A program made the translations under genes and the position numbers. From positions 1 through 16,404 of the forward strand of contig JABWBV010000082.1 in NCBI GenBank assembly GCA_013359445.1: a stretch of 16,404 nucleotides of DNA, in the 5' to 3' direction. Source of the stretch: Anaerolineales bacterium (lineage in GTDB: Bacteria > Chloroflexota > Anaerolineae > Anaerolineales > JABWBV01). This document shows positions 4,225 to 16,086 of the stretch, one piece after another (position 1 is the first letter of the stretch; every line of letters starts with the position of its first letter). The notes under the pieces are model-generated. The model worked only from the letters and a program-made list of their open reading frames with translations, had not been told where the DNA came from and did not search any database.

Positions 4225-4262
4225 AAAAAAAAGGCCGGGCAGTTGAACTGCCCGGCCTTTTT
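4225..4262. terminator. Bidirectional rho-independent terminator shared by the convergent GH57-like and metalloprotease genes
   Basis: A6-8 run (4225-4232), then GGCCGGGCAG (4233-4242), loop TTGAA, then CTGCCCGGCC (4248-4257), then TTTTT (4258-4262). It is a perfect 10-bp GC-rich stem flanked by an A-run and a T-run. Confidence 0.7.
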
Positions 4263-6966: not shown

Positions 6967-7011
6967 GAAACAAGAATGACAGGAGGGACCTCCCCCTGTC
7001 ATTCTTGTTTT
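6967..7011 (-). terminator. Perfect 15-bp inverted repeat (hairpin H2) between the beta-helix protein gene and the metalloprotease gene; REP-like/terminator-like
   Basis: AACAAGAATGACAGG (6969-6983) pairs with CCTGTCATTCTTGTT (6995-7009); the 11-nt loop itself contains GGGA/TCCC. It lies 33 nt downstream of the stop of the 7044..9047 gene. The U-tract is weak (TTTTGG on the plus strand). It is sequence-related to the hairpin at 9111-9147. Confidence 0.45.
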
Positions 7012-9105: not shown

Positions 9106-9151
9106 GAAAAAGGATGTCAGGGGAATGCACATCTCCCCTGACATCCTTTTT
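9106..9151. terminator. Perfect 14-bp palindromic hairpin (H1) flanked by an A-run and a T-run; bidirectional terminator-like, immediately 3' of small gene A
   Basis: AAAA (9107-9110), then AGGATGTCAGGGGA (9111-9124), loop ATGCACATC, then TCCCCTGACATCCT (9134-9147), then TTTT (9148-9151). It abuts the stop codon of the small gene at 9151-9153 and lies upstream of the 9047 start of the beta-helix gene. Confidence 0.65.
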
Positions 9152-9381
9152 CAAGGTTTACCCCTCTGTGCGGGAGTAATTACGTTAATTTTTTCCGTCT
9201 CTTCTGAGCCGGACGTTTGTTGATGCAAAAACAAAAATAACCGTTCCAGGTCTTCAAAATGCCATTCTTCCCCGGTCAAGACGTGGCGCGCCGTGGCCCG
9301 CCAGGGTGCGTCTTCCGCGGAACGCCACAAGCGGACGAGATAGGATTGATACATGGAGGAAGAAAGATTTCTTTCGGACAT
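9151..9381 (-). CDS. Small Trp/charged-rich conserved hypothetical protein, paralog A (76 aa)
   Basis: The start is ATG 9381 (MSERNLSSSMYQSYLVRLWR...) with a GGGAG Shine-Dalgarno 6 nt upstream; the track's start at 9393 is 4 codons longer. A paralog lies at 13282-13473 with the identical core EEWHFEDLERLFLFLH. That 16-aa identical block carries 7 synonymous and 0 nonsynonymous nucleotide differences, indicating purifying selection on this frame. The opposite-strand ORF 9259..9474 is not conserved in copy B. Confidence 0.7.
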   Translation of the reverse strand: MSERNLSSSMYQSYLVRLWRSAEDAPWRATARHVLTGEEWHFEDLERLFLFLHQQTSGSEETEKINVITPAQRGKP

Positions 9382-9385
9382 GGAG
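9205..9385. repeat. Copy A of an approximately 180-bp duplicated segment (direct repeat, about 75-80% identity, ungapped) carrying the small-protein gene
   Basis: It aligns without gaps to 13300-13480 at a constant offset of 4095 bp. For example, tgcaaaaacaaaaa[t/c]aaccg[t/c]tcca... and gcggacgagataggattgata occur in both copies. Confidence 0.7.
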
Positions 9386-9490
9386 ACTCCCATCTTACAA
9401 AATCCCCGTCACAAAAACGTAGCAAGCCCCCGCGCGTCCGCCTTCCCCGCCCGTTTCGAGAAGGAGCAGGGTAGTACTTGCGCGCTAGTT

Positions 9491-10067: not shown

Positions 10068-13000
10068 ATGCCTGCCCCGCGCCTCGCGCTCACCCTCTTC
10101 GGGCCGTTTGAAGCCCTGGTCAACGCCCAGCCCCTCGCTTTTGCCACCGATAAAATCCGTGCGCTCCTCGCCTACCTCGCCCTCGAACCGGACAAACCCC
10201 ACCGCCGCGAAACCCTCGCCGCCCTGCTCTGGCCCGATTATCCCGACGAGACCGCGCTCCGCAACCTGCGCCAATCGGTGTACCGGCTCCGCCAAACGCT
10301 GGCCGACGCCGATCCCGACCTGCCCGCCCGCCTGATCACCCAAACCCGCCCAACCATCACTCTGCACGCCGCCGCGCTGACCACGGACACCGCCCGGTTT
10401 ACCGCCCTCGTGCAGGAGAGCCAAATTGCGCCTGATCCGCGCCCCCCTTTGACCGAATTGACCGCTCTCTACCGGGGCGAACTGCTGAAAGGGTTCGCCT
10501 TGTCCGACGCCTACGCCTTCGACGAATGGTTGAGCATCCAGCGCGAAATTTTCCACCAGCAAACGCTCGACGCCTTCACTCGGCTGATGTCGCGTCAGGA
10601 AAACGACCCCGACGCCCTGCTAACCACCGCGCCGCGCCTGCTGGCCCTGGCCCCCTGGCACGAAGAAACCCACCGCCAGATCATGCGCGCCCACTTGCAA
10701 AAAGGCAACCGCACGCAAGCCCTTGCCCAATACCAGACTCTCCGCACGACCCTGCTCCGCGACCTGGGCGTAGAACCCGCCCCCGCTACCACAGCCCTGC
10801 TCGCCCGCATTCAAACCGAAGCGCCTTACCCCGAAAACGCTCAAACCGCACCCATTCCCCCCCGCCCGACCCTGCGGAACTTCCCCGCGCCGCTCACCCC
10901 CCTCATCGGACGCAAAGCCGAACTGGACGCGCTCACTCAGATGCTGTCCGACCCCGCTTGCCGTCTGGTCACGCTGATCGGGCCGGGCGGGATGGGGAAA
11001 ACGCGTCTCGCGACCGAAACCGCGCGCCGCCTGTCGGCCCAGCCTCATCGGTTCACGGATGGGTTGTACTTCGTGCCGCTCACCCAACTCGAACAGGGGG
11101 AGTTGCTCCTCGCCACGGTGGCGCAAAACCTGGGCCTTACGCTTTCCGCCACCGCCGAGCCTCGCCGAGAACTCTTCCAGTATCTGCAAAGCCACCCCTC
11201 CCTGCTTCTCCTCGACAATTTTGAGCATCTCCTGCCCGACGCCGCGCCCATGCTGAGTGAACTTCTCGCCGCCGCGCCGGAGACCACGCTGTTGGTGACC
11301 TCCCGCGACCCGCTTGCCATTCAGGGCGAGTGGCTTTATCCGCTCGAAGGGCTGTCTTATCTTCCCGACCCGCGTGAAACTGACGCCCCGCTCGAACGCC
11401 CCGCCCCGCAACTGTTCATCCAAACTGCCCGCCGATACCGCCCGTCATTCGATCCCCCGGCCCACGCGGAATCCATCCTGGCGATCTGCCGCCTGACCGA
11501 TGGCTTGCCCCTTGCCCTCGAAATGGCCGCCGCGTGGATGCGCGCGTATTCCACCCAAGAAATCGCCGAACGCATTACCCAAAGCCTAGATTTTCTCACC
11601 AACCCCTATCGGGACGCGCCCGCCCGACAACGGAGCCTGCGCGCGATTTTCACTTCGACGTGGGAACAGCTCGCGCCGGAACCCCGCGCGGTGCTCGCCG
11701 CCCTGTCGGTGTTCCGGGGCGGGTTCACCGTCGCCGCCGCGTTAAACGTCGCCCAGGCTGGGGTTCTCGATCTGGCCGTGCTGGTCGAAAAATCCTTCCT
11801 GCGCCGCGCTGAACACCGTTACGATTTGCATGAACTGGTGCGCCAGTTTGCCGCCGAAAAACTAGGGGAGATGGGCCACGCGCCGGTGATTTTTGCCCGC
11901 CATGCGAACTTTTATCTCGCCACCCTGGCCCAACAAGCCCCTGGCTTGAACGGGCCATCCCCGCAGGAGGCGTTGTCGGCAATGCGCCAGGAGTTGGACA
12001 ATGTGCGCCACGCGTGGGCCTGGGCGGTCGCGAGGGCGGAGGTGCGGTTGCTCGAAATGGGACTGGAGGGGTTGGTACAGTTTTTTATGTTGACAGGGAA
12101 CCTTGCGGAGGGGGAAAACGCGGTCAAAAAGGCCCGCGCCGCTGTGTCGGCCCTGCCCGCGGCCCCCACGCCACTTCAAAGTCAGTTAGAGAGTTCGCTG
12201 GCGTGGTTCCGCGTGGGGTTGGGGAATCATCTGGCCGCGTTAGAAAATATTCAGGCCGCGCTGTCCCTTGCGGGGCAACATCTCCCCAGCCGCGCCCGTG
12301 CCCTTTCGATTTACGGGTGGGCGTTGCAAACAACCGGGAAGTATGCCGAAGCGGAAACGGCGTTGGAAGAGGCGATTACCCTGTTTGACCAAATGGGCGA
12401 TCTGTTTCAAAAATCTTTTGCGCTGATTCGCCTGGGTGGGGTTTATTGGCGGAGGCGGGATTTTGAGAAGACGCGGATGTATTATCAACGCTCGTTGCAA
12501 ATCGAACAAACGCTGGGAAACAAGCGAGGGATGACGCGCGCGTTCGGCGGGCTGGGGTTGGTGTATTTAAATCTGGAAAAATACCCGGAGGCGCTGGAAG
12601 GGTTGGGGCGGGCGCTGGAATTGGATCGGGAATTGGGAAATCTGGCAGGGGTGTCGCGCCATTTGGGGAACATTGGCGCGGCGCACTTGATTTTGGGTCA
12701 GTTTGAGCAGGCGCGGGCGTGTTTTGAGGAGGCGGCGGAAATGGATGCCCGGGCGGGGAATAAAGTGACGCTGGGCATTTGGAAGGAGAACCTGGGGATG
12801 GTGTTTATGCATCTCCAGCAGACGGATAAGGCGCGGCAGTGTTTTGATGCGTCCATTGGGTTGTTTCGAGAGGCGGGCAATCGGTTTAACTTGCCGGAGC
12901 CGCTGTTGGGCAAGGCGGATTTGCTGTTGGCGCGGGAGGAAGATGATGAAGCAAAAACGCTGATCGAGGAGGGGGTGCGCCTTTCGGACGAACTCAACCG

Positions 13001-13274
13001 CAAGGATACGCAGACCCGTGGGCGGCTGTTGCTCGCTCGTTGGCTCGCCCGGACCGATCCTGCCACCGCCCGCCAACAGTTGGAGACGATGCTGGCCGCC
13101 CTCGGTGATTTGCCCGCCGAGGAGACCCGCGCGCAGATTTATTTCGAACTCTGGCGCACGGATGGGCGCGAGGAGGATGCGGGGCGCGCGTTGGACCTGT
13201 ATCGGCGATGTTTGGGGAGGGCGCAGAAGTTTGAGTATCGGGTGAGGGTGGAGGCGTTGGAGCGTAAAACGTAG
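10068..13274 (+). CDS. AfsR/SARP-family large transcriptional regulator: OmpR-type winged-helix DNA-binding domain + BTAD, NB-ARC/STAND P-loop NTPase, C-terminal TPR repeats
   Basis: A 1068-aa ORF. The N-terminus LTLFGPFEALVNAQPL...KIRALLAYLAL is SARP-like. The BTAD region reads YRGELLKGF...DEWL...RLLALAPWHEETHRQIMRAHLQKGNRTQALAQYQTLRTTLLRDLGVEP. Walker A is LIGPGGMGKTRLA and Walker B is LLLLDNFEHLL. TPR-like repeats run through the C-terminal 450 aa. Confidence 0.9.
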   Translation: MPAPRLALTLFGPFEALVNAQPLAFATDKIRALLAYLALEPDKPHRRETLAALLWPDYPDETALRNLRQSVYRLRQTLADADPDLPARLITQTRPTITLHAAALTTDTARFTALVQESQIAPDPRPPLTELTALYRGELLKGFALSDAYAFDEWLSIQREIFHQQTLDAFTRLMSRQENDPDALLTTAPRLLALAPWHEETHRQIMRAHLQKGNRTQALAQYQTLRTTLLRDLGVEPAPATTALLARIQTEAPYPENAQTAPIPPRPTLRNFPAPLTPLIGRKAELDALTQMLSDPACRLVTLIGPGGMGKTRLATETARRLSAQPHRFTDGLYFVPLTQLEQGELLLATVAQNLGLTLSATAEPRRELFQYLQSHPSLLLLDNFEHLLPDAAPMLSELLAAAPETTLLVTSRDPLAIQGEWLYPLEGLSYLPDPRETDAPLERPAPQLFIQTARRYRPSFDPPAHAESILAICRLTDGLPLALEMAAAWMRAYSTQEIAERITQSLDFLTNPYRDAPARQRSLRAIFTSTWEQLAPEPRAVLAALSVFRGGFTVAAALNVAQAGVLDLAVLVEKSFLRRAEHRYDLHELVRQFAAEKLGEMGHAPVIFARHANFYLATLAQQAPGLNGPSPQEALSAMRQELDNVRHAWAWAVARAEVRLLEMGLEGLVQFFMLTGNLAEGENAVKKARAAVSALPAAPTPLQSQLESSLAWFRVGLGNHLAALENIQAALSLAGQHLPSRARALSIYGWALQTTGKYAEAETALEEAITLFDQMGDLFQKSFALIRLGGVYWRRRDFEKTRMYYQRSLQIEQTLGNKRGMTRAFGGLGLVYLNLEKYPEALEGLGRALELDRELGNLAGVSRHLGNIGAAHLILGQFEQARACFEEAAEMDARAGNKVTLGIWKENLGMVFMHLQQTDKARQCFDASIGLFREAGNRFNLPEPLLGKADLLLAREEDDEAKTLIEEGVRLSDELNRKDTQTRGRLLLARWLARTDPATARQQLETMLAALGDLPAEETRAQIYFELWRTDGREEDAGRALDLYRRCLGRAQKFEYRVRVEALERKT

Positions 13275-13281
13275 AACCAGA

Positions 13282-13473
13282 TCAAGAATCCCCCCTCTCC
13301 TTTCCCCCCGTCCGCTCGTGCAAAAACAAAAACAACCGCTCCAAATCTTCAAAATGCCACTCCTCCCCGGTCAGCACGTGCCGGACTGTCGCCCGCCAGC
13401 ACACTTCTTCTGAAGGACGCCAAAGGCGGACGAGATAGGATTGATAGGTGGAGGAAGCGTGGAGAGGGGACAA
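13282..13473 (-). CDS. Small Trp/charged-rich conserved hypothetical protein, paralog B (63 aa; apparent TTG start)
   Basis: (L/M)SPLHASSTYQSYLVRLWRPSEEVCWRATVRHVLTGEEWHFEDLERLFLFLHERTGGKERGDS. It has no in-frame ATG. The TTG at 13473 has AAAGG 7 nt upstream, and the frame is open upstream only to 13552 with no other start codon. Its stop lies 7 bp from the regulator stop on the opposite strand. Confidence 0.55.
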   Translation of the reverse strand: MSPLHASSTYQSYLVRLWRPSEEVCWRATVRHVLTGEEWHFEDLERLFLFLHERTGGKERGDS

Positions 13474-13480
13474 GAAAAAA
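13300..13480. repeat. Copy B of the approximately 180-bp duplicated segment carrying the small-protein gene
   Basis: Ungapped alignment to 9205-9385 at a 4095-bp offset, in the same orientation. Confidence 0.7.
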
Positions 13481-13500
13481 CCTTTACTTGCGAGTCGTTC

Positions 13501-13579
13501 CGGGAGCGAAATCCCTGAAACGGGCCATAAACGCCATCTGCGGGGGGCTGTTCATGTCGTCGTCTCAGGGATTTCTCCC
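13501..13579 (-). promoter_or_regulatory. Long-range stem structure in the 5' region of small gene B / 3' region of the FG-GAP gene
   Basis: CGGGA (13501-13505) and GAAATCCCTGA (13508-13518) pair with TCAGGGATTTC (13564-13574) and TCCCG (13575-13579). That is 16 bp with a 2-nt bulge, enclosing a 45-nt GC-rich loop. Confidence 0.4.
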
Positions 13580-13618
13580 GATGGTCGAAATGACGGATGG
13601 GAGAAGATGGGGGCTGAT

Positions 13619-13660
13619 GGACACGGAAAACCGAATGGTCAATCCGAGTCTTCCGTGTCC
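13619..13660 (-). promoter_or_regulatory. Perfect 10-bp stem-loop (GGACACGGAA / TTCCGTGTCC, 22-nt loop) downstream of the FG-GAP gene stop
   Basis: Seen directly in the sequence. There is no adjacent U-tract on either strand, so it is not a canonical intrinsic terminator. It could be a rho-dependent or attenuator structure, or part of a structured RNA. Confidence 0.4.
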
Positions 13661-13687
13661 ATCTGAGTTCGAGTCTGCTTTTCTGGC

Positions 13688-15427
13688 CTACCGCCCTAAT
13701 GCCCAACCAAACCGGTCATTCATCTCGGAGTCATCGGGAATGTCTGTCGATTCCTGATACCAGATTTGATTATCCACGGCGGTTAACCCGCTCCCCGATC
13801 CATATATGACATGGAGCGCCCCCGCGTCTGTCTCCGTGACCGCGTTCACCAAAACATCCTCATACGGAGCGCCCACCACCAGGTCGGTGAACCCATCCCC
13901 GTTGTAATCTCCGGCGGTCAAGGTGTAGCCGAACAAATCGTCCACTTCCGGCGCCCCCGTCACCAGGCCTTGCGCCCAAAGGTCTTGTCCGTCCGTGGAG
14001 AGCGTGGAGCCATTGCTATACAGCACCTGCACAAATCCCTGGTTCAACTGATCCCCATCCTGGAAGGGCACACCCACCGCCAGATCATCCACCCCATCAC
14101 CGTTGAAGTCGGCGGCGATCAACGCCTGTCCAAGTCGGTCCAGCGTCTCTGGCGCCCCCAAAATCCCGTCCAACCCCTGATAAAGAATCATATCGTTCGC
14201 GCCGGACAGCCCTCCTCCAATCGCCGAGCCGAACAACACATGCACGGCCCCCGCGTCGGTTTCATCGCCCACGCCATTATTCACATCCTCACCGGGCACA
14301 CCCACCACGAGGTCACCGGCACCGTTTCCATCAAAATCGCCCGCGGCCAACACCGTGCCGAAGCTATCATGATCTTCCGGGTTCCCTTGCACGCTATTTT
14401 CACCCTGTCGCCAGGCCGTTTCGCCCAAGAGCGAGATACCCGCGTCACTGCCCTGGAACACCATCACCGCCCCGACATTATCCACCCCCAATATGTCGTA
14501 ACCGGGAATGCCCACCGCCAGATCATCGAACCCATCGCCATCGAAATCTTCCGAAGCTAGGGCCGCCCCGAAATAATCGCCACTCGCCGGTTCCAAATCT
14601 ACCGATTCCAACCCGTGGTGGAAAATGATGTCGTCCAAGGCTTGCAAACCATCCGCCGAGCCATAAATGACATTCACCGCGCCCATCTCGGTAATCCCGT
14701 CCGATTCCAGGTCTTCTTTGGACGAACCCACCGCCAAATCCGCGAATCCGTCCCCGTTGAAGTCGCCGCTGATGAGCGCTTCCCCAAACCGGTCGCCCTC
14801 CTCCGCAAGGCCTCCAATCCCGTTCAAACTCTGACCGAAGGATTGTGTCCCGTTGTCGGTCAAACCCGTGCCCGGATACCCATAAATGACATCCACCTGC
14901 CCGACGTTGGTCATTCCATCCCGCCCCTCGCCAGGGGAACTGACCGCCAGATCGCTGGTCCCGTCCCCGTTAAAGTCACCTATCGCGAGGGCGAACCCAA
15001 ACTGCTCGTCCGGCAGGCTGACCCCAAGGATATTTTCCTGCGTCCAGAACTGATTGTTCTCCGCGTTCAGGCCATCTGCCGTGCCGTACAGGATTTGAAT
15101 TGCACCATTATCCGCCACCAACCCGTTGCGGTCTTCGGTCGGAATCCCGATGGCGAGATCGGCGTACCCGTCCCCGTTGAAGTCCACCAACCCGTTCGGG
15201 TCAGCGGGCGAACAGTCCAGCGTCCCCCCGCCAATCGAAGCAGGGCTGTCGCTGGAAATCGGGTTCCCGGCTCGTATAACAAGCGGCAGGTAAACCTGAT
15301 AACAGGTCGTCCCCCCCGCTACTGCAGGAGCAGGAGCCGCAAATGATCTCCCGTTCATGACAAAGGCTATCGCGATGAACAGGAAGAGGCTGATAATTTT
15401 TATACCGTTGAAAATTTTGTTTACCAT
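13688..15427 (-). CDS. Secreted FG-GAP repeat (integrin-alpha-like beta-propeller) protein
   Basis: The start is ATG 15427 (MVNKIFNGIKIISLFLFIAIAFVMNGRSFA|AP signal peptide) with an AGGAGA Shine-Dalgarno 7 nt upstream; the track start at 15481 lacks an SD. At least 7 FG-GAP repeats are present, e.g. DFNGDGYADLAIG, GDFNGDGTSDLAV, GDFNGDGFADLAVG, EDFDGDGFDDLAVG, GDFDGNGAGDLVVG, ADFNGDGVDDLAVG and GDYNGDGFTDLVVG. Confidence 0.85.
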   Translation of the reverse strand: MVNKIFNGIKIISLFLFIAIAFVMNGRSFAAPAPAVAGGTTCYQVYLPLVIRAGNPISSDSPASIGGGTLDCSPADPNGLVDFNGDGYADLAIGIPTEDRNGLVADNGAIQILYGTADGLNAENNQFWTQENILGVSLPDEQFGFALAIGDFNGDGTSDLAVSSPGEGRDGMTNVGQVDVIYGYPGTGLTDNGTQSFGQSLNGIGGLAEEGDRFGEALISGDFNGDGFADLAVGSSKEDLESDGITEMGAVNVIYGSADGLQALDDIIFHHGLESVDLEPASGDYFGAALASEDFDGDGFDDLAVGIPGYDILGVDNVGAVMVFQGSDAGISLLGETAWRQGENSVQGNPEDHDSFGTVLAAGDFDGNGAGDLVVGVPGEDVNNGVGDETDAGAVHVLFGSAIGGGLSGANDMILYQGLDGILGAPETLDRLGQALIAADFNGDGVDDLAVGVPFQDGDQLNQGFVQVLYSNGSTLSTDGQDLWAQGLVTGAPEVDDLFGYTLTAGDYNGDGFTDLVVGAPYEDVLVNAVTETDAGALHVIYGSGSGLTAVDNQIWYQESTDIPDDSEMNDRFGWALGR

Positions 15428-15672: not shown

Positions 15673-16086
15673 TTACGCGGGCTGATACGCCGCTTCTTGC
15701 ATCAACCCGCTCAACAACGCAAACGCGTTTTCCCACGCGGATTCCACTTCGGGCGTGTACGCCGCGCCCAGGCCTTTTTCCAGCGTCCACAACAACGCCG
15801 CGCCGACGGTGGCGTAATGTTCGGGGCGCACGCCGTACCCCGCGTGGCGTTGGCCCAGGCTTTGCACGGCGGGGATGATCCGTTCGGGGTTGTCCAACCC
15901 GATCACGACCAGTTTGAGGGCGGACATCAGTTTTTCGCCCTGGGTTTTCAAATCCGCTTTGAACAACGGGCGCAGGTTGGGGTCCAGTTCAAACAGCCGT
16001 CCGTAAAACAGCGAGGCCGCGGTGTCCGCAATGGGTTCCACCTGGGCAAAAGATTGTTGGAGGGTGAGAATTTCTTGTGTGTTCAT
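15673..16086 (-). CDS. Single-domain bacterial hemoglobin (3/3 globin, Vitreoscilla Hb / flavohemoglobin N-domain-like)
   Basis: A 137-aa ORF with an AAGGAG Shine-Dalgarno 5 nt upstream of the ATG at 16086. FYGRLFELDPNLRPLF, IIPAVQSLGQRHAGYGVRPEHYATVGAALLWTL and ESAWENAF align with the VHb/Hmp globin fold, including the proximal His in the HAGYGV context. Confidence 0.85.
   Translation of the reverse strand: MNTQEILTLQQSFAQVEPIADTAASLFYGRLFELDPNLRPLFKADLKTQGEKLMSALKLVVIGLDNPERIIPAVQSLGQRHAGYGVRPEHYATVGAALLWTLEKGLGAAYTPEVESAWENAFALLSGLMQEAAYQPA

Follow-up and report, generated by a model that had tools for sequence, protein, structure and literature searches.

A spacer of two unrelated intergenic palindromes between an FG-GAP gene and a small gene of an Anaerolineales contig: a probable mosaic

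The window analysed here is one complete 16,404-nt contig (JABWBV010000082.1) of a metagenome-assembled genome from an Anaerolineales bacterium, and statements on the copy number of either palindrome in the source genome cover this contig. Its subject is the 214-nt spacer (13474-13687, − strand) between a gene for an FG-GAP/VCBS repeat protein and a small gene, here called small gene B. With a probability of roughly 0.6, we read this spacer as a mosaic of two unrelated intergenic palindromes and not as one folded regulatory unit, in which the first palindrome has a role at the RNA level and the second was inserted later. The first, hairpin 1 (13616-13663, − strand), is a 48-nt palindrome that folds on the sense strand and is found in all of the recovered orthologous loci; it would be a locally retained, partly degenerate copy of a dispersed family of palindromes that resemble repetitive extragenic palindromic (REP) sequences. 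The second, hairpin 2 (13502-13579, − strand), is a 78-nt palindromic element whose presence varies among strains; it would be a later insertion with terminal inverted repeats, placed inside a pre-existing 10-bp hairpin in one sub-lineage.

Structure and conservation of the two hairpins

The − strand of the window carries, in this order, a globin gene (15673-16086), the FG-GAP gene (13688-15427), the spacer and small gene B (13282-13473), and is the sense strand of the spacer for the FG-GAP gene and small gene B alike. Both hairpins are real and lie far beyond chance. The whole spacer folds on the − strand to −83.2 kcal/mol (z = −5.56), a value equalled by 0 of 200 shuffles, compared to z = −2.94 on the + strand. 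Hairpin 1 alone reaches −31.1 kcal/mol in the sense direction (z = −7.1) vs. −24.7 in the antisense direction, an advantage of 6.4 kcal/mol, and hairpin 2 alone reaches −39.6 kcal/mol (z = −6.1) vs. −35.8 kcal/mol. RNA folding thus agrees with an earlier sequence-only reading of the same DNA, which had called this region highly structured.

The details of the stems agree in part with what that reading had described. Its interrupted stem (stem A, within hairpin 2) is present as given: on the + strand, 13502-13518 pairs with 13565-13579 through 5 + 10 bp, or 16 bp counting C13501-G13580; C13507 and G13508 form a 2-nt bulge, and the interior is ~46 nt long. Its other structure, a perfect 10-bp stem-loop (stem B, the present hairpin 1), is indeed a stem-loop but is longer than first reported. 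On the + strand it pairs 13616-13628 perfectly with 13651-13663 over 13 bp. On the − strand, i.e. in the sense direction, it has a stem of 16 + 5 bp that includes three G-U pairs, is interrupted by a 1-nt bulge and closes on a 5-nt loop. The imperfect pairs of hairpin 1 are all G-U on the sense strand.

No U-run directly follows hairpin 1 or hairpin 2, as had been observed before, and neither is a canonical terminator; the sequence right after hairpin 1 is AGCCCCCAUCUU in the window and UUAAAAUC in the more distant L001 lineage introduced below. A promoter and terminator scan of positions 13000-14000 gave no terminator-like or sigma-70-like site. Rfam searches of the window, in both gathering and E-value modes, gave no match and only generic miRNA-like long-hairpin noise, so that the Rfam scan suggested with the earlier reading yields no known RNA class here.

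In order to compare the spacer among relatives, orthologous loci were found by homology to small protein B and the FG-GAP protein. The FG-GAP DNA is 94.1% identical to that of the window in L008 (= L009), where the spacer is 203 nt, and 93.1% identical in L056, where it is 133 nt. A more distant lineage (L001 = L054 = L055, hereafter the L001 lineage) has a small protein that is 86% identical and a spacer of 80 nt, and L010/L011 have an FG-GAP ortholog that is 63% identical, with a spacer that is not comparable. The three close strains (window, L008 and L056) are about equally distant from each other, with a synonymous divergence (dS) of ~0.2; for the L001 lineage, dS is 0.5-0.8. Loci L002-L007 belong to the type of small gene A, the paralog of small gene B in the window, and are without this spacer.

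Of the structures in the spacer, only hairpin 1 is conserved. It is found in every B-type locus recovered (L008/L009, L056 and L001/L054/L055), 20-24 nt after the FG-GAP stop codon (24 nt in the window), and differs among the close strains at 0-1 of its 48 positions. The window and the L001 lineage share its outer 12 + 12 nt without a single difference, although the flanking spacer is unalignable; the 10 differences from that lineage all lie in the inner stem and loop. In the common structure, 16 of the 21 pairs are invariant, three one-sided changes stay paired (G-C to G-U, G-U to A-U and U-A to U-G), one change is two-sided (A-U to G-C) and one breaks its pair. The 24 nt between the FG-GAP stop codon and hairpin 1 (13664-13687, − strand) are variable among relatives, with 1-4 mismatches and a gap among strains that are ~94% identical, and cannot be aligned to the L001 lineage. 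Conservation of the stems at orthologous loci, the check that the sequence-only reading had attached to its proposals, therefore comes out for hairpin 1, with pair-preserving changes, and not for hairpin 2, which is absent from L056 and from the L001 lineage.

We propose that the FG-GAP gene and small gene B would be co-transcribed, with hairpin 1 on the shared transcript. As a very stable 21-bp RNA hairpin, it could block 3′-exonucleases and so protect the upstream message; alternatively, it may be a partial stop to read-through or a site for a double-strand RNase. With any of these roles, the levels of FG-GAP and small gene B would no longer be coupled, and such a secondary effect of hairpin 1 on the expression of the two genes is plausible. 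Points that count for the RNA-level role include the preservation of pairs on the sense strand; the better fold of that strand; the canonical terminator (a stem followed by T8) that L010/L011 have, in place of hairpin 1, at the homologous position; the gap of only 12 nt between the end of hairpin 1 and the ATG of small gene B in the L001 lineage; and the empty promoter scan of the window spacer. Intercistronic hairpins that stabilise mRNA include the malE-malF REP and the hairpins of the Rhodobacter puf operon. Hairpin 1 resembles them as a long hairpin between co-directional genes that could set unequal cistron levels, and differs from them in that its co-transcription is only inferred.

The same position after a stop codon would also suit a complete intrinsic terminator of the FG-GAP gene that works without a U-tract, in which case small gene B would have a promoter of its own, unrecognised, further downstream. 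U-tract-less, ‘I-shaped’ terminator hairpins are reported for Actinobacteria. Hairpin 1 shares with intrinsic terminators a very stable GC-rich stem soon after the stop codon, and the terminator of L010/L011 stands at its homologous position. It departs from them in having no U-tract and in having a same-strand downstream gene as near as 12 nt; in the L001 lineage a separate promoter and leader would find no space, and the scanned part of the window showed no promoter-like site either. In addition, the dispersed copies described below occur in divergent intergenic regions as often as chance predicts and have no bias to gene 3′ ends. We consider a complete terminator improbable.

Dispersed CACGGATnnA palindromes

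The arms of hairpin 1 recur far outside this locus. A scan of metagenomes (JGI) with these arms (GATGGACACGGA N15-35 TCCGTGTCCATC, 24 specified bases) found the exact arms at at least 120 loci among the matches listed; by our own estimate, chance would give well under one match in the ~10^12 bases scanned. The 120 listed loci fall into 109 groups with unrelated flanks. Their 5′ arms consist of tandem CACGGATnnA units and their 3′ arms are complementary, and the number of units is often unequal between the two arms. A typical copy reads aaCCACG-GATGGACACG-GATAAACACG-GAT ... ATC-CGTGTTTATC-CGTGTCCATC-CGTGGtt. The arm of hairpin 1 in the window is a degenerate three-unit version with units of ~10 nt (cTCAGATGGA / CACGGAAGA / CTCGGATTGA), of which 12 + 12 nt are identical to canonical family members.

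The family is spread over genomes of very different composition, the GC content of its loci ranging from 0.47 to 0.70. Exact-protein clusters assign L066 and L130 to Anaerolineae (Chloroflexota) and L162 to Rubinisphaera (Planctomycetota), and a protein of L085 is 90-91% identical to proteins of Verrucomicrobiales (Verrucomicrobiota). Its sequence unit is thus common to three phyla at the least, namely Chloroflexota, Planctomycetota and Verrucomicrobiota. Several metagenome contigs hold additional copies, six viral contigs match the generic family pattern, and tandem arrays with a period of ~87 nt occur in the Anaerolineae contigs L066 and L130. These arrays (L066 2540-2935 and L130 1-420) comprise 4-5 tandem units, each with a CACGGAT-type hairpin, and have the look of bacterial interspersed mosaic elements (BIMEs); that of L130 comes to its end just upstream of a gene whose start carries a GGAGG ribosome-binding site.

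No gene accompanies these copies as a rule. When 510 neighbouring open reading frames (ORFs) were clustered, no ORF family occurred in more than 5 loci, and no recurrent ORF within 3 kb of the listed copies linked them to a transposase, including the REP-associated tyrosine transposases (RAYTs). Rfam searches of 26 family loci gave no match at gathering score and only generic long-hairpin noise, and a search for papers that contain the 14-17-nt strings of the decamer repeat found none. The CACGGATnnA repeat is unmentioned in a survey of REPs (PMC3733652) and in a census of MITEs (miniature inverted-repeat transposable elements; PMC11602168). We accept hairpin 1 as a probable member of this family because of its 24 identical nucleotides, the periodicity of its units and the presence of the family in Anaerolineae, and despite the weak profile test given below. 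The CACGGATnnA palindromes appear to be a widespread and apparently uncatalogued repeat family.

The closest known counterparts are REPs and BIMEs, which the family resembles in consisting of short, imperfect intergenic palindromes with many dispersed copies, sometimes in tandem arrays and often a few to tens of nucleotides past stop codons. E. coli REPs can stabilise the upstream mRNA or attenuate read-through. The family differs from REPs in its ends, (A/G)(A/G)CCACGG ... CCGTGG(T/C)(T/C), which have neither a GTAG nor a CGTC tag, and in its arms of tandem ~10-nt units, the number of which differs between the arms. Furthermore, the CACGGATnnA unit is common to at least three phyla, whereas a REP family is usually confined to one genus or species, and no link to a RAYT is seen within 3 kb of its copies. 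The REP superfamilies of Enterobacteria and Pseudomonas are GTAG- or CGTC-tagged (Di Nocera 2013, PMC3733652).

As to what a shared decamer could be for, we suggest, quite tentatively, that it is the recognition unit of a conserved trans-acting partner, and that copies such as hairpin 1 are retained to recruit this partner at gene junctions. The partner would then be either a repeat-mobilising enzyme that has spread horizontally or a host protein that binds RNA or DNA, an idea that we hold just as loosely. The decamer presumably resembles the CsrA consensus obtained by systematic evolution of ligands by exponential enrichment (SELEX), RUACARGGAUGU.

A protein could also bind the decamer arrays as DNA, with hairpin 1 as a putative operator, and candidates would be the adjacent SARP/BTAD regulator (SARP, Streptomyces antibiotic regulatory protein) or a conserved nucleoid- or repeat-binding protein. 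The unit period of ~10 nt equals one helical turn. Across at least three phyla and genomes of 47-70% GC, the sequence is conserved and not just the pairing, and the gene beside small gene B codes for a SARP-type regulator, a protein that would be expected to bind short direct repeats. The motif is a poor fit for a local regulator, as it stands at more than 100 unrelated loci without a common neighbour gene; here, it consists of degenerate units, placed downstream of one gene and as far as 142 nt from the start of the next. We regard protein-binding DNA sites as very unlikely. The operator pair that the sequence-only reading had offered is not supported, for the same reason: the arms of hairpin 1 recur at at least 120 listed sites, 109 of them with unrelated flanks, and share no neighbour gene.

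Several more specific candidates were set aside. Streptomyces SARP operators are direct heptamer repeats with an 11-nt period that abut the −10 element of the target promoter. A SARP operator does not fit here: the units repeat every 9-10 nt within a palindrome, no −10-like site adjoins them, and they turn up at unrelated loci as well. The four CCATC repeats of the spacer were dropped as protein sites, since they are not conserved in L008 or L056. An attC site, a CRISPR repeat and the hairpin of a diversity-generating retroelement (DGR) were rejected by eye, their defining motifs and array or partner genes being absent.

Hairpin 2 as a candidate insertion

Hairpin 2 has terminal inverted repeats of 16-17 nt (GGGAG-AAATCCCTGAGAC ... 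GTTTCAGGGATTTCGCTCCC) and occurs in the window and in L008/L009. L056 lacks it precisely, and in the L001 lineage both hairpin 2 and the surrounding ~64 nt are missing. Between the window and L008, its arms (14 + 20 nt) show no difference and its interior differs by ~40%, with indels; in L008 the outer 5′ GGGA is lost, which breaks the outer 5-bp stem.

The empty site of L056 reads ...TTTCGACCATC|GGAATGACTCG... and lacks exactly the 78-nt element. This site (L056 1965-1987) folds as a 10-bp hairpin, GUCAUUUCGA-CCA-UCGGAAUGAC, with CCA as its loop, and is homologous to positions 13594-13580 plus 13501-13494 of the window. In the window, the 36 nt between the two hairpins (13580-13615, − strand) accordingly end in 15 nt (13594-13580, GTCATTTCGACCATC) that correspond to the 5′ part of this older hairpin, and the proximal leader of small gene B (13474-13501, − strand), which is conserved in L008 and L056, begins with its 3′ part (GGAACGAC, 13501-13494). 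The window thus holds one palindrome nested within another, and the outer hairpin, already split, is weakened further by a U-to-C change. The simplest history is that hairpin 2 entered a hairpin that was there before, because a deletion is unlikely to make a perfect hairpin by chance; L056 would then either never have received hairpin 2 or have lost it by precise excision.

Comparison with MITEs, such as the Correia elements of Neisseria, the pneumococcal RUP and BOX elements and the cyanobacterial Nezha, shows several likenesses. Hairpin 2 is ~80 nt long with terminal inverted repeats of 16-17 nt, was judged to have no coding capacity, is precisely present or absent among close strains and would have entered an intergenic hairpin. 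It differs from MITEs in that no second copy or parent insertion sequence was found among the Genome Taxonomy Database (GTDB) representatives, fetched loci, plasmids or viral contigs, and in that its junctions carry only a 2-3-nt direct repeat, GG or CGG, which is equally possible as microhomology. An inverted-repeat scan of GTDB representative genomes for a second copy gave 42 matches, which do not include the source genome and are all in unrelated taxa and with unrelated interiors, and none was present in 788 kb of fetched loci, in plasmids or in viral contigs. These searches leave the source genome beyond the contig outside their scope, and hence their single-copy result is not decisive. 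The anatomy and polymorphism of hairpin 2 may be called MITE-like and make it a putative member of a MITE family, and the idea of a widespread MITE was set aside given the 42 unrelated matches and the lack of copies in local loci, plasmids and viral contigs.

The inverted-repeat scan also drew attention to two other elements. Phytohabitans aurantiacus (L015, L039, L040, L044 and L046) carries an unrelated hairpin repeat of 56 nt (GAAATCCCTGAT...ATCAGGGATTTTGTCGGGATCT) in at least 5 copies. Several Syntrophobacteraceae and related taxa (L013, L014, L017, L022, L026, L042 and L049) have in common a conserved segment of 77-78 nt that is delimited by the same 11-mers.

Hairpin 2 stands 28 nt upstream of the TTG start of small gene B as a strong structure, and leaves free a Shine-Dalgarno-like AAAGG (13485-13481) that lies 7 nt ahead of this start. 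The lack of a U-tract had led the sequence-only reading to favour a cis-regulatory 5′ leader for small gene B, the operator pair treated above, or a small RNA. A cis-regulatory leader, a riboswitch-like element or a small RNA would agree with the strong sense-strand structure immediately upstream of the gene and with hairpin 2 arms that are unchanged between the window and L008. It would not be expected to be missing, as hairpin 2 is, from L056 and the L001 lineage, where small gene B is intact and under purifying selection; nor does the other structure help, as hairpin 1 is a generic repeat. The lack of an Rfam match, and of any promoter or terminator signal in the scanned region for an independent small RNA, speaks against the remaining variants. 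We find a dedicated regulatory element of small gene B scarcely credible, and neither of these two earlier proposals has specific support.

From its distribution, hairpin 2 is dispensable. It cannot serve as a required leader, because it is absent in L056 and the L001 lineage while small gene B is under strong purifying selection. Small gene B thus does well without hairpin 2, and any effect of hairpin 2 would be strain-specific.

Hairpin 2 also contains the start of a 23-codon ORF on the − strand (ATG 13555-13553 to TAA 13486-13484, MNSPPQMAFMARFRDFAPGTTRK), which ends 10 nt before the TTG of small gene B. The L008 version keeps the ATG and has an in-frame 3-nt indel, and is then truncated by a 1-nt deletion. 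This ORF is probably fortuitous.

Weight of the evidence, neighbouring genes and meaning

Several observations weigh against the mosaic as we describe it, and in particular against a role for hairpin 1. In the family at large, copies lie in co-directional, convergent and divergent intergenic regions at 23:9:9, which is the background ratio without depletion from divergent regions, and fold in the sense or antisense direction without bias (19 vs. 15, p = 0.6); both tests used crude gene calls based on GC at third codon positions (GC3) and are provisional. With no bias of context or strand, the family therefore looks like DNA-level, REP-like dispersed palindromes and not like selected terminators. 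An independent, arm-only hidden Markov model (HMM), made from 21 copies that were not selected with the arms of the window, gives the hairpin 1 arm first place in L001-type loci (E = 0.02) and is weak for the arm of the window (E = 0.29). With 164 of 500 shuffles as good, the covariation in hairpin 1, which draws on three distinct sequences, lacks statistical significance, so the argument for constraint depends mainly on conservation relative to dS. Moreover, the invariance of the arms could come from gene conversion among repeat copies and not from local selection. As for hairpin 2, no second copy was found in the sequences searched, and ‘MITE-like’ refers to anatomy and polymorphism alone. 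Finally, anatomy, conservation pattern, family relationship and insertion polymorphism are established directly, and beside them co-transcription and any RNA-level role are what we infer.

These points bear above all on the alternative in which both palindromes are selfish or neutral repeat DNA with no local function, and hairpin 1 is uniform through gene conversion or a low local mutation rate. Such neutrality would fit a family that is dispersed without orientation or context bias and without a shared neighbour gene, as well as a hairpin 2 that appears dispensable. It fits less well with a hairpin 1 that has been kept in place over dS 0.5-0.8 while its flanks decayed, whose imperfect pairs are all G-U on the sense strand, and whose position is held by a true terminator in a more distant ortholog. 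We take purely neutral repeats to be unlikely, though to be kept in mind, and prefer the mosaic in which hairpin 1 would act on the RNA.

The FG-GAP/VCBS repeat protein gene (13688-15427, − strand) encodes 579 aa from the ATG at 15427, its longest ORF extends to 15481, and its stop codon is the TAG at 13690-13688; the protein matches Pfam FG-GAP with E = 2e-60 and is recorded in its 579-aa form as NUM44725.1. Small gene B (13282-13473, − strand), recorded as HUU38_08440, encodes 63 aa from a TTG start at 13473 and matches no Pfam or NCBIfam family. Its ratio of nonsynonymous to synonymous divergence (dN/dS) is ~0-0.15 relative to its orthologs, i.e. it is under strong purifying selection, which argues that it is a real gene, of unknown family.

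Small gene B and its paralog, small gene A (9151-9393), belong to a tiny family without a Pfam or NCBIfam model (YQSYLVRLWR...WHFEDLERLFLFL), of which a homolog search found only six clusters at 90% identity (loci L001-L007 and L054-L056). Its members are always near a gene for a SARP-type BTAD/NB-ARC/TPR regulator or a DinB_2 gene. The region upstream of small gene A is unrelated to the present spacer, as the sequence-only reading had said. In the window, the regulator gene (10068-13274, + strand) is convergent with small gene B, and only 7 nt, without a terminator, separate the two stop codons. The relatives have a canonical terminator (AAAAACGCCCCG...CGGGGCGTTTTTG) 3′ of small gene B (L008 2255-2360, L056 2200-2310 and L001 350-400); the downstream neighbourhood has therefore been rearranged.

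Long palindromes are found elsewhere in the window too. The perfect hairpins at other gene junctions of the window have 17-19 bp. These include a 19-bp hairpin without a clear U-run between a PMP-repeat gene and an 894-aa gene (6968-7010), and an 18-bp hairpin directly after small gene A that is followed by UUUUU (9108-9150). In addition, a bidirectional, A/T-flanked terminator lies between convergent genes (4228-4262). Long hairpins at other junctions of the contig fit a general role at gene ends.

At the end of the contig (16255-16404) are two tandem units of ~82 nt, 84% identical over 68 nt, each with GTAG followed by a palindrome (GTAGTGCCGCACCCCAGTGCGGTCCGGCACTG). They look like a dimer of GTAG-tagged REPs, which are reported for Chloroflexi (PMC3733652), and this REP-like dimer probably explains why the contig ends there.

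Taken together, stacked intergenic palindromic repeats are a known kind of arrangement, and the real potential for novelty lies only in the repeat family that crosses phyla. The spacer is probably not a riboswitch-like leader, and half of its structure appears to be a strain-specific insertion, from which the regulation of small gene B should therefore not be inferred. As CACGGATnnA elements will time and again pass for ‘highly structured intergenic regions’, searches for structured RNAs should mask or annotate them. Should there be a conserved partner protein, the family would provide a handle on post-transcriptional or chromosomal organisation in poorly studied phyla.

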